DNA of 64,000 bases from Balanoglossus misakiensis (Eukaryota > Animalia > Hemichordata), in the NCBI GenBank assembly GCA_040954595.2, contig CM082594.2:7323573-7387572 (forward strand), in the 5' to 3' direction. Below, piece after piece: positions 30,974-38,300 of the stretch. The first letter of the stretch is position 1; the number at the start of each line of letters is the position of its first letter. The notes under the pieces are model-generated. The model had not been told where the DNA came from. It saw only the letters and a list, made by a program, of their open reading frames with translations, and made no database searches. A program made the translations under genes and the position numbers.

Positions 30974-31525
30974 TCACGACATGCTCGAACAAGGCACACG
31001 CGGCGATCCCATCTGTGTGAGAACTCTATCTAACCACTGCAGTGGTCCATTGAGATGTAGTTCAATCCAACATGGCGTGCTGGTCACAGTCTGCCGACGG
31101 TACTCTGCTCCCCAACCTTTGACAAAACTCATGCGAATCGTGCACATTTTCGTCAGTTGAAACACTGCCTCGAATCCCTGGTTGACCGACTGCGACAGCA
31201 GGGCTGCGAATTCTTGGTTGTTGAAAATCTTCAAATTACAACCTGGATATAAAAAAAATAAAGATTAATTTTGGTGATAATTATAAACAAGTCAAAAAAT
31301 TCAGGCAGATTTTTTATTGATTTACCAGAAATGCTCACATATTTGTGAAAGAAAATTCCTGGTACATAAATAAAAACCACTTCTTACCTGGTGGTATTTT
31401 ACACACTGTTGCCGGGTGCCATCCGTATCGTAGATTACACTGTGGACTCTGAACGAATAGGCTACTCTCACTAAGGCATTCCGCAAACACTTCGCCTCCG
31501 ATGTAATACAATCGCACACCTTTAC
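30974..31525 (-). CDS. SMAD2/3: Smad2/3 distal terminal cassette B: exons 31525-31388 (138 bp) and 31242-30974; ends [12 protein letters not shown]
   Basis: Intact MH2 C-terminal half ([18 protein letters not shown]...[17 protein letters not shown]...[18 protein letters not shown]) with phase-1 AG/GT sites and a canonical SSXS. Confidence 0.93.
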
Positions 31526-33574
31526 CTGAAATGCACCAAATAAGAATTCATCAACACTTTCAATAAGCCACACACTGGTCTCAGCCGAATGATAACTTTT
31601 AAAAGCTGTCCCTCAACGGCAACAAGCTCAATTCTTTTGTTTGGGCTGTTTAGCTTGGTACGTCTAGCAACAGAACTGTCTGCCCCAAAAAAGTGTTGCA
31701 AGTGTAATTCACGCTTTGGTATGCCATCAGTAACACCATTGATTCTTTGGAAGACATCTTCCTGCAGGTGGATGAATTATTGAGCCGACCTTACCTGGAT
31801 TTTCAGTTCCACTAAATAACAGACAAAGAAAAAGGCACAGACAGACAGACCAAGCAAGACAGACATTCAACTTCCAATGCTGTTGCAAAAACAAGCATTC
31901 CTTTATTATCAAGAGAAAAAAACTGATTACAAATATACTGTGAGTGGCATGGCAACAAATGTTAAGGTGTATCCACAGTCAGCATTTAGACGACTACAGT
32001 GTATCATACTCCTCAACAGAATGTCTTTCAAGTAACAGTCAGGTCACGCCCTTTGACCTCGCTGGCTCATGGGTAATGACCTCATTTGATAGTTCAAAGT
32101 CACACTACCCTTGTTGTAAATAAAGAATATACTCTTTCTTTTAAAAAACACATTATTTCCAAATCTGAACGTGTTTATTTTTCATGCCAATTATTTAGTA
32201 TCTCATCACCCTCAAACTGCACAAATTTGTGAACATTTTTCACAGTGGTACTTTTATTATGAATTTGACTGTTAATTTTACTAAAATGTGATTCAGGCAT
32301 TTCTTCGCTTCCCTCTTCCACCAAAAGTAATGTCAAACATTTGCTTCCAACAAACAAAAAATAGCTATCACAATGGCACCCTTCTTGAAGTAATAAGTTT
32401 AAACAAAAGAAATTGATGGCAGAATATGGTAAATTTTTTGGTACTTTTGAAGTTTTTCTTGGTTGCCAACAAAAAAGTAAATAAAATTTAAATGTTAAGA
32501 TAAAAAATTTCTGCTAAACTTCTATACATAATAAAGTCTGCCTACTGTTTTACAAAATAACGTTTTTTTGTTTCATATTGAAACCCACATACGTGAAACA
32601 AAACTACACAAACACACATGGAACAAGTACATTTCATAAAAAAATAACATTAAATTACTGCTGTTTTTGTTGCCGATTTCTCTGCTTCCGTGCTATTGAC
32701 CCCTTTGAACTCTGACCCCACGGTGACTTATGACACACAGAGTTCAAAGATCAAAAGCCATGACAAAATATTCATTTTCATGCACACGCCACACATTTGT
32801 AAAAGTACCCCTCCCCTGTTCAGTTGAGCACTGTGTTCCTGTCTCATAAGTTACCGTTCTGAAAAAAGGCCTATTTCATCATATGGATGTGTATTATAGC
32901 ATTTCAAAACTTATGTGCAGCACTGAAAAACTGTGCCAAAGCTCGAAACCCATCAACGCTGCAAAGATCAACTCAGTCCACTTTCTCACAGAAAACCATG
33001 TCAAAGGAATCTCCACAGACAAAAAACCACCTGGGGCAATCTTCTCAGTCCCTCTGTGGTTTGGTTTCACGTTTAAAATATCAGTTTGTGCTTCTTTATT
33101 TTCACAAACGAAGTCAGTTTTGTTCACATGCTAACACATAGAGAAATTCCCCTGGATTGTTTTGTTAGACATACACACCATTTCACATGTGCACTGATTG
33201 AGAATGAACCTGCGTATTAGGGGCGAGGAATGGAATGTGCAAAATGGCTGATTCTCTGGTTCAGTTCTACGGACCACATGACTAGTCTACATTTTAAAGG
33301 TCAAAGGTCAAGCAGTTAAGGAATTAGTATGTGGTCCAAATGTATTCAAAGTACTAAACAAACTGGATGATAACCAATCTGGAAAATAACCAGTTCTTGG
33401 TTAACTCTTGTAAAGACAAAACAAAGACAGTTACTTGGACTGGTTTTGACTACCTTGCATTGGTAGGTAAATTGTAACTTACGGCAACCAACCAATACAC
33501 TAACTAGTGATGACAGCACTTGACTGTTGTATCATGTCACAAATCAGTACCAATTACTGAGACAATAATACATG

Positions 33575-35369: not shown

Positions 35370-38300
35370 TTACGACATGCTGGGGCAGGGGCCTGGAGGC
35401 CCTCCCATCTGTGTAAGAACTCGATCTAGCCACTGCAGTGGTCCATTGAGATGTAGTTCAATCCAACATGGCGTGCTGGTCACAGTCTGCCGACGGTACT
35501 CTGCTCCCCAACCTTTGACAAAACTCATGCGAATCGTACACATTCTTGTCAGCTGGTAAACTGCTTCAAATCCTTGATTAACTGACTGTGACAAGAGGGC
35601 TGCAAATTCTTGGTTGTTGAAAATCTTCAAATTACAACCTGGATATCAAAGAAACATTTTTTACTTTAATTACAAGAAATGCTCACATAATTGTTTAAAA
35701 AAATTGTGTAACAGTTTCACGAAAGTATTGATAATCAACATGCAAAACTACAGTTTCTAGCCTACTTAGGTCAACATTAATTTCATTGATTCAGGATCCT
35801 TAGCATAGTCAAAGTCATCAAGATGGCCTTTTGTACCTAAACATCAAACATTAATTACAAAAACAAATTTAAACAAATTAAAATCCCTTCATGTTTCAAA
35901 TGATTGTTTTTGCCACTTAACTTGGGTGCAATAAATATTTGAAGAGTACGAAAAAAATACTTCTTACCTGGCGGTATTTTACACACTGTTGCCGGGTGCC
36001 ATCCGTATCGTAGATTACACTGTGGACTCTGCACGAATATGCTACTCTCGCTAAGGCATTCCGCAAACACTTCGCCTCCGATGTAATACAATCGCACGCC
36101 TTTACCTGTGAAACACACGAGCGTTAACGCCAAACAGTCTGTAATGTGCATCTCATAAAACAAAATAAGAATCGTAGTGACAAGCGCCCTCACAGTTGCC
36201 ATGGTTTTGTATCTTTTCACATGACCAAATAATTATTTTGATTTCAGAAGTTTTCATGCCAAAAGAAGTTTTTTTTGAAAATCTTACAAAGAATTTTGGT
36301 AAAAAACATTGTGAGTGCAACCCACATACTGTCGGCGTTCACGCACGTGGAACTACCATCACAGGTGTCGATTTTAGATTATAATTTTTTGCTGGTTAGT
36401 CCAGTAGTCTGTGTATCTATTTTCATTTCACATCTTTTACCATACGGATGATTGATCCTAATTTTCCCATAATGGACAGAGTTAGTAAAATTATGGACAA
36501 CTATTGAGGTCTTTTCAATGCAACAAACTGACTACCTCAAAGAAAAATTTTGGTCTCACTGATTTCATATCTCTCAATACTCATGCACGCATGCATCCTG
36601 ATTGAACTGTAGGTTTGAAACACCGCTATTTCTGCCAAAGTAGACTGTCCCATGGAGTTTGAAACACACGGAACGTACCACATTCTTCATAGAAATAGGA
36701 GGTTTGGCTGGCTGTGAAAAGAATTCAGCCTTTCATGTAAACAATTGAGTTTCTATAACATGAAACAGAAACCTGCTCCCCCTTCATTCCAGACATGGTT
36801 TTGATCCTACTCTGCTGATTCTATTATGGGTCAGTCTACTTGGCGCCGTTCTGAGGGGTGGATTTACTTGCACAGGGATGATGCGCTTACCAATATGTCT
36901 CCTTGTGAGTTCAATGGTTTGATTTCTGTTGATATTCGACAGCAGTCCCAGGCAGAACCGTTCGGAGTTGGAAGGATCGGTGAACCCGTCGACGGTCAGC
37001 GATGGCTGAGATGCGTGGAACGTCTCTCCAACTCGGGTGTTCATTTCGTAGTAAGCGATGGAGCACCAAAACGGAGGCTCGCAGTACGGAACTGGCTGCA
37101 CGTCTGAGGAAAAGAAAAGAAACAGAGACTTAGATGAGGACTCCGGCTTTTATGATTTAGAAACCCTGTTTTTGCTCTCAATTAAAACCTGCTATCTGGT
37201 GACTGCTTCCAAAGGCCAAGGACTAGCAGCATGCAATGTCAAGAGTGCCACCTCAAAATTCAAGGGGCGTAGTCGGCCCAGGTGCCAAGATCTCACGAGT
37301 GTCGTTACAAATATTTCTGAAGTGGGGGGAGACAATAACCATTCGCTTGTTCGAATCCGTAATGACGGCCAACTTTTTAATGTGTTCATTTTCATTCAAT
37401 TGGTGCCATTTCAACTTAATCAGGCATATTAGGAAGGTCGTGACCTTCTGTAAATGATGCCCCGAGGGTAGCGACTCAGTCTTGAAGGAATACGACAACC
37501 TTTAATTTACATATGCCCATTTAAGGTTAAAAGGATGTGTCTAGGTCTTTATGCGACGATGAGAGACTCTTTGCAAGTGGAGGTTTGTGATTGGTTAGAT
37601 CGCCACTCTCCATGGCAACTGCGGCTTAATTTGCATCAGTGTTCAGACACCTCTGTAAACACAACCAAAAATCTTCCCATTGTCTGTTGTGTACAGTCAA
37701 GTATAGATAGGTTTTAGTGTATTTGTATGCTAATCAGTGGCGCTGAATTTTGAGACCAGGTGTACACAGAGTGAGACAGCCAATAAGAATCTAGAGCACC
37801 AAGAGACACTTACCCAAAGATGGGTTTGGACTTTGTGCAGAATCAGCTCCATTACCTGAAGACAGAAAAAAAGGAGAAAACATTAGGTATTTGCAAACCA
37901 CTTCACCTGTCGAATCTATTTAACAATGGCCAGAGCACTATCGATCGAGTCAATCTAATCGCACACATTATCGGACACTTAAATGTCACCTACAACAACA
38001 ATACCGCTCACAGCTCTTACAGATCCATAAAATTATTCACTCATTTACATGGCACGTCCTGTACGATCAATGCAATGTGGCAATCAACATTACCAATAAG
38101 AACTTTCAATGAAACACATGACACAGAAACACAGATTATTTCATGCATCAATAAATGTTTATAACACTACATTGTATATTTCTCATACTTGTGATTAAAG
38201 AACACTGAAACTCGGACAGCTGCATGATATTTTTTCCTTGGTTCTCTCTTTTAATCTATAATAAGCGTGACATTCATACAAGTTTTAAATACTTATTGAG

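Follow-up and report, generated by a model that had tools for sequence, protein, structure and literature searches.

Can a single Smad2/3 gene encode two receptor-regulated Smads (R-Smads) that differ at the signalling end of the protein? The question is raised by a stretch of 64,000 nucleotides (nt) from the acorn worm Balanoglossus misakiensis (contig CM082594.2, positions 7,323,573 to 7,387,572; hereafter the window, which is without N), whose minus strand carries a Smad2/3 gene with exons for residues 66-420 placed by tblastn and splice sites between 58750 and 35370. The last two exons of the MH2 domain occur twice, as cassette A (exons A1 and A2) and, downstream of it, cassette B (B1 and B2), and the coordinates given for both pairs in a first-pass annotation of the window are all correct (Table 1). 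The intact phase-1 splice sites, open frames and stops that it described in both cassettes are likewise borne out by the sequence: all four acceptors are CAG and in phase 1, the donors of the two cassettes are identical (CAG|GTAAGAAG), and each frame runs open to its stop, TAA in A and TGA in B. Pfam matches MH2 in both cassettes, and MH1 together with MH2 in the protein of the hemichordate Ptychodera flava used as query. The duplicated terminal exons in this Smad2/3 gene are real and old. We propose, with a probability of about two in three, that the gene yields two R-Smad isoforms through an alternative choice of last exons that is coupled to polyadenylation.

Cassette B has no evident means of being expressed by itself. 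When four full-length hemichordate Smad2/3 proteins were used in tblastn, no Smad exons other than the cassettes were found between A and B, the same outcome as in the first-pass annotation, and upstream of B1 an in-frame stop lies 7 codons away without an ATG, so that B as a stand-alone gene is rejected. The annotation had concluded that B must be reached by splicing from 36891 with A skipped; B is indeed unreadable alone, but A1 spliced to B2 (35968>31242) is also in frame and carries the SSMS tail at its end. The second isoform may then be real but made mainly by this hybrid route, with only the last exon alternating and B1 a passenger kept intact by gene conversion. A1 and B1 do differ at just 5 of 46 codons, against 25-27 between either and an outgroup transcript-like contig (L001), as expected under conversion, and the B2 acceptor has 15 pyrimidines in 20 positions compared with 10 in that of A2. 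We nevertheless consider this version unlikely, as B1 has kept an AG of its own even though its upstream flank cannot be aligned with A, and its five differences comprise four synonymous changes and one conservative one. The acceptors of A1 and B1 are both poorer in pyrimidines than those of five shared exons (15-19 of 20).

The differences between the cassettes are unevenly distributed. A and B differ at 37 of 407 nt, and across 136 codons including the stop there are 25 synonymous differences (one of them the stop) and 7 residue changes (A/B: I/L, Y/F, R/K, G/S, P/R, G/V and P/S); the statements that most differences are synonymous and that the protein changes are SIF/SLF, VYQLTRM/VFQLTKM and the tail both hold on recount. 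Five codons differ among codons 1-57, 16 of 23 among codons 58-80, none of 36 among codons 81-116 and 10 of 19 among codons 117-135, within block limits that were chosen after inspection of the data, and some of these blocks are synonymously saturated. An identical run of 36 codons is unexpected by permutation (p 0.0006), and as the same tract differs from L001 at 15 of its 36 codons it is not simply slow-evolving. We infer gene conversion between A and B over exon 1 and over the region of the L3 loop, which had been reported as the same in both copies and indeed falls within the identical 108-nt tract. Conversion of codons 58-80 of B from a Smad1/5 gene was considered and rejected, B having retained A392, Q400 and Q407 (Smad2 numbering throughout, anchored at the last residue). 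These codons (31142-31210, minus strand) have a G+C content at third positions of 0.74, compared with 0.35 in A and 0.48 in L001, a GC-rich shift that perhaps reflects biased conversion or a splicing element.

Both the age of the duplication and the constraint on its products can be read from these differences. The comparison of nonsynonymous with synonymous divergence that the first-pass annotation had called for gives, over 135 codons, proportions of differing sites of 0.309 (synonymous) and 0.0255 (nonsynonymous) and corrected distances dS 0.40 and dN 0.026, hence a dN/dS of about 0.065 (Fisher p 1.3e-13). The flanks of A and B (150 nt upstream, and 200 and 300 nt after the stop) align no better than shuffled sequence, their scores being reached by 194, 248 and 25 of 300 shuffles respectively, so the copies are old and are not haplotypes. 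An assembly error that attached to this gene the terminal exons of another Smad2/3 locus or haplotype is therefore highly improbable: the unalignable flanks and the saturated synonymous blocks exclude a haplotype, while the conversion-like tract fits close neighbours and the window is free of N. In the 42 codons of B not homogenised with A there are 2 residue changes relative to L001. Neutral simulation on a branch of 0.2 predicts 14, and none of 20000 runs gave as few as 2; so few changes appear in 0.7% of runs at a branch of 0.1 and in 17% at 0.05, and the overall dS of 0.40 together with the scrambled flanks argues for a branch of at least 0.2. Furthermore, because A differs in the tail, the tail of B could not be maintained by conversion from A, and because B has no start of its own, selection on B implies splicing into B, now or until recently. 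Purifying selection on both cassettes is thus supported, and it is from selection that the use of B is inferred; counting the hybrid A1>B2 route, it is quite probable that both cassettes are used.

The two tails are those given before, PSMS in A and SSMS in B, and comparison with relatives polarises them. Saccoglossus, Glandiceps and L001 all have I355, Y406 and R410 together with an ancestral tail of the SSMS type, from which it follows that the derived positions of A are all in the tail (458, 460, 461 and 464), its body being ancestral, whereas those of B are 355, 406 and 410 and its tail has kept the ancestral state. The A tail is identical to that of P. flava XP_070536090.1, which is the best protein match of the last exon of A among the matches listed (100% over 88 residues), and the whole cassette A protein agrees with it at 135 of 135 residues. 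In the shared upstream region, 219 residues long, the window and P. flava differ at 4, compared with 6 between P. flava and Glandiceps talaboti and 9 between P. flava and Saccoglossus kowalevskii, which places the window nearest to P. flava among the records compared; the split between harrimaniids and ptychoderids is dated to about 373 million years ago (PMC4729200; this and the other papers are cited for the sections available to us). Among 164 fetched Smad2/3-type tails, which are the top matches of our queries rather than a census, PSMS is found once, in P. flava, while 161 read SSXS and two begin with T. The B tail conforms to the SSXS consensus; the A tail departs from it at the first serine and keeps the last two (465 and 467), and A is a Smad2/3 by descent but not a consensus-tail R-Smad. 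Its L3 loop, like that of B, has R427 and T430 rather than H and D (site identities according to PMC1702503), and A and B do not differ at any of the phosphoserine-pocket and L3 residues checked (375, 420, 427, 428, 430 and 450). Metagenome contigs provided 80 loci, 33 of which have a Smad2/3-type L3 loop and tail; neither PSMS nor paired tail exons were found in any of the 33, a weak negative as these are mostly short transcript-like contigs, and a degenerate A-tail pattern had no match in the metagenome contigs. A protein tree places all hemichordate rows together without resolving the order among them (86/85), and it is confounded by the shared exons.

Each cassette appears to be followed by a 3′ end of its own. 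The 3′-end element of A matches the last 80 nt of L001 (75%, E 3e-7), which itself ends directly after AATAAA, and a poly(A) site for A is predicted near 31890, about 370 nt before B1. Matches to the 3′ untranslated region (UTR) of L001 lie after both cassettes, with best scores of 48 for A and 39 for B; 0 of 200 shuffles reach either score, and three control introns of the same gene score 28-34. These remnants of the ancestral UTR indicate that the duplication took two exons together with the whole UTR, and they support a separate 3′ end for each cassette, the cleavage sites being predicted and weaker for B. The UTRs now differ almost wholly, in agreement with the first-pass annotation. One member of a dispersed repeat (33886-33979 and 20779-20872, 88%) lies inside the predicted 3′UTR of A.

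Given two such 3′ ends, both isoforms might be made as equivalent proteins, with selection keeping two 3′UTRs (about 3.5 kb and about 1 kb) for mRNA stability, location or maternal translation. The almost complete difference between the UTRs, the identity of the checked phosphoserine-pocket and L3 residues and the natural occurrence of T or N at the first SSXS position (2 of 164 proteins, 1 of 33 loci) are all compatible with this explanation. Proline is presumably a harsher change than T or N, and the four changes of the A tail, identical in two diverged animals, seem to fit selection for a new tail better than drift, which leaves equivalent proteins a rather unlikely alternative. B may instead be a relic that worked for long enough to bear the marks of purifying selection and is now silent, the conserved poly(A) site of A ending every transcript 370 nt before B1 and the sole Smad2/3 being the PSMS form. 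The outgroup transcript end does find its best match in the 3′-end element of A, and the one form recorded from P. flava, as a predicted protein, is A; yet B is without lesion, having retained its frame, four splice signals, stop and ancestral tail, and a long decay is rejected by the neutral simulation, so that silencing would have to be recent. We regard such a relic as improbable, slightly more so than a second isoform made mainly by the hybrid route.

Several results weigh against two functionally distinct isoforms. No B-type protein was present among the 120 matches listed from each of three protein searches, one of them a search of short proteins with an A/B profile, in which the 120 matches listed of 526 included no A-type fragment either; SLF was absent from all 139 fetched proteins. 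The P. flava record forms a cluster of one and its name bears no isoform tag, which suggests that only A is annotated in that species; with no B-type protein found, B could be rare there, or unannotated, or absent. Of 177 fetched Smad2/3 proteins, 25 have Y406F and 3 have K410, so the changes in B may be neutral, and the signals of selection could outlast a recent silencing of B. Competing RNA pairing of the PGRP-LC or Dscam type is also unsupported as a means of choosing between cassettes: the best docking/selector duplexes (-21.8 and -26.4 kcal/mol) are no stronger than those of shuffles, being reached by 31 and 15 of 40, and no strong inverted repeat was found among the 25 longest of 268, in a search confined to this one sequence, which may miss short pairings.

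The model of two isoforms from coupled splicing and polyadenylation most reasonably fits the evidence taken together, and would operate as follows. When the donor at 36891 joins A1, cleavage at the A site near 31890 would end the transcript and exclude B. When A is skipped (36891>31525), or the hybrid junction 35968>31242 is used, the A site would be read through and the mRNA would end near 29920. A is probably the main form, since it is proximal and is the form found in the P. flava protein record. MH1, the linker and the identical L3 loop would be common to both isoforms, which are accordingly predicted to answer to ALK4/5/7-type receptors. Recognition by type I receptors is through the L3 loop, and their targets for phosphorylation are the two distal serines (PMC11063908). 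Positions 460-463 are receptor-specificity sites, and position 410, where TGF-beta Smads have R and BMP Smads have K, has a putative FAST1/Mixer role (both PMC1702503, Table 2). The A isoform would keep serines 465 and 467, and its proline 464 and the changes at 458, 460 and 461 may alter the efficiency of phosphorylation or trimerisation. Ser464 is reportedly not phosphorylated itself but needed for efficient phosphorylation (Abdollah et al. 1997). The efficiency of A would most likely be lower, making A a lower-gain or kinetically altered effector, while B, with its canonical tail and a helix-4 surface changed by F406 and K410, would bind cofactors differently and is predicted to be a canonical-gain form with a changed cofactor surface. 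Conversion would keep the L3 region alike in the two, and the blocks with differences would escape it. The first-pass annotation had likewise proposed two R-Smads from one locus as mutually exclusive cassettes; two selected cassettes, each with its own 3′ end, and the recurrence of the A tail in P. flava speak for that proposal, but the class is that of alternative last exons and not of internal mutually exclusive exons.

Table 1. Features of the Smad2/3 gene, its terminal cassettes and their 3′ ends (positions in the window)
Feature	Position	Strand	Basis or remark
Shared exon, second half of MH1	58557..58750	-	tblastn with P. flava protein, residues 66-130, 98%; splice sites
Shared linker exon	57938..58072	-	tblastn, splice sites
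Shared linker exon with PPGY motif	43239..43313	-	tblastn, splice sites
Shared linker exon, 42 nt	37814..37855	-	tblastn, splice sites
Last shared exon, MH2 start	36891..37103	-	phase-1 donor at 36891, in frame with A1 or B1
Cassette A exon 1 (A1), 138 nt	35968..36105	-	I355 ancestral; acceptor 13/20 pyrimidines
Cassette A exon 2 (A2), coding part, 269 nt	35370..35638	-	Y406, R410 ancestral; L3 loop; derived tail; TAA
108-nt tract identical to B 31034-31141	35430..35537	-	residues 413-448, including L3 loop; likely gene-conversion tract
Derived A tail ending PSMS	35373..35402	-	S458G, R460P, V461G, S464P relative to the hemichordate ancestral tail
Conserved 3′-end element of cassette A	31896..31977	-	AATAAA at 31907-31902, then GT-rich stretch, 69% G+T
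Cassette B exon 1 (B1), 138 nt	31388..31525	-	L355 derived; acceptor 12/20 pyrimidines
Cassette B exon 2 (B2), coding part, 269 nt	30974..31242	-	F406, K410 derived; ancestral SSMS tail; TGA
Weaker proximal UTR remnant of B	near 30782-30681	-	nhmmer E 0.016; distance from stop same as in L001
Ancestral distal 3′UTR remnant downstream of B	30050..30078	-	26/29 nt match to L001 UTR, E 1.4e-4
AATAAA, candidate poly(A) signal of B	29937..29942	-	motif only; others: ATTAAA at 30006, one at 29655

The first coding exon of the gene was not found within the window and probably lies beyond position 64000. Inside one of the introns, on the same strand, is an uninterrupted frame of 1134 codons (45396-48800, minus strand). 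It has no Pfam family and 670 relatives at E<=0.001, the best being an uncharacterised Glandiceps protein (79%), followed by proteins of Branchiostoma and P. flava, and its matches in the atlas are unnamed eukaryotic clusters; we take it to be a candidate DDE transposase with a CxxH motif. Candidate terminal inverted repeats lie at 43878-43893/50432-50447 (16 nt, perfect) or 44423-44446/50598-50621. A second dispersed repeat pairs 42865-43004 with 18161-18300 (91%). Directly downstream of the Smad gene are three tandem single-frame BTB_2 (KCTD-like) genes (23826-27546, minus strand), two of which are 80% identical over 698 nt. Further downstream, exon-like frames at 18507-19716 (minus strand) and 20850-21095 (plus strand) resemble, in their translations, a LysM-domain protein and the small TFIIA subunit; a Pfam scan of 18510-18938, the one exon of these that was scanned, gave no match. 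A satellite fills positions 1-14607. Its unit is 87 bp long and recurs about 165 times at 99% match; a 48-bp break interrupts the array at 7655-7750, and past 14333 the copies are diverged and apparently inverted. The long open frames there are a by-product of the repeat.

With adjacent homologous exons of equal phase, both open, the locus has the arrangement of a tandem duplicated terminal exon substitution. Swaps at the C-terminus make up 77 of 236 such events in human (PMC9741552), and the acorn worm gene resembles that class in having homologous duplicated terminal coding exons whose proteins differ only in the C-terminal region; it departs from it in that two exons and a UTR were duplicated and that the copies are 95% identical in protein and form a conversion mosaic. 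In the Drosophila 3′ variable regions of PGRP-LC, CG42235 and Pip, early termination favours the first cassette (PMC6191721). A shared donor, tandem 3′ cassettes and coupling to polyadenylation are common to those genes and to our model, whereas the competing RNA pairings described there were not detected here, where only two, nearly identical cassettes are present. Among Smads, Smad8B and Smad5beta have C-termini altered by splicing, and Smad2 is also made without exon 3 (PMC10167241, PMC4990216). They too are isoforms of one Smad locus with different signalling ends, but those variants delete or truncate MH2 or SSXS, Smad8B being a dominant inhibitor, while the A and B isoforms would each have a whole homologous MH2 and both phospho-serines. 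Most invertebrates have one Smad2/3-type Smad (PMC3500652). The parallel with vertebrate Smad2 and Smad3 drawn in the first-pass annotation stands as far as two TGF-beta/Nodal R-Smads from one ancestor are concerned, and is otherwise loose: Smad2 and Smad3 are separate genes with separate promoters, both have SSXS and they differ notably by the MH1 exon-3 insert (PMC3500652), whereas the two acorn worm isoforms would have promoter, MH1 and linker in common and differ only at the MH2 end and in the 3′UTR. The architecture, C-terminal tandem exon substitution with alternative last exons, is therefore known; in a Smad it is apparently unreported. We found no published description of a Smad with duplicated terminal exons or with a PSMS tail, although subscription papers and supplements may bear on this; the term 'smad' has no occurrence in the main text of PMC9741552 and no match in the supplements of PMC11618098 and PMC4729200.

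R-Smads are switched on through the SSXS tail, which is almost invariant, as the fetched tails illustrate (161 of 164). It is a tentative possibility that ptychoderids transmit Nodal/TGF-beta signals mainly through a PSMS Smad2/3, with a splice-selected isoform that has a canonical tail and a BMP-Smad-type helix-4 residue setting gain and cofactor choice, conversion holding the receptor-specificity loop and selection protecting two islands of difference. A study in P. flava obtained no clear signal from 8 commercial Smad2/3 antibodies (PMC4571091). The A tail could contribute to that failure, a weak link as 3 of the 8 listed reagents are directed to linker-phospho or total Smad3 and not to the phospho-tail. 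More generally, the locus is a compact example of duplicated exons that combine conversion with islands of divergence. A conserved natural PSMS in the Smad2/3 of P. flava, a model hemichordate for Nodal patterning, offers a ready test of the role of the first serine, with the SSMS cassette as an internal control from the same gene.

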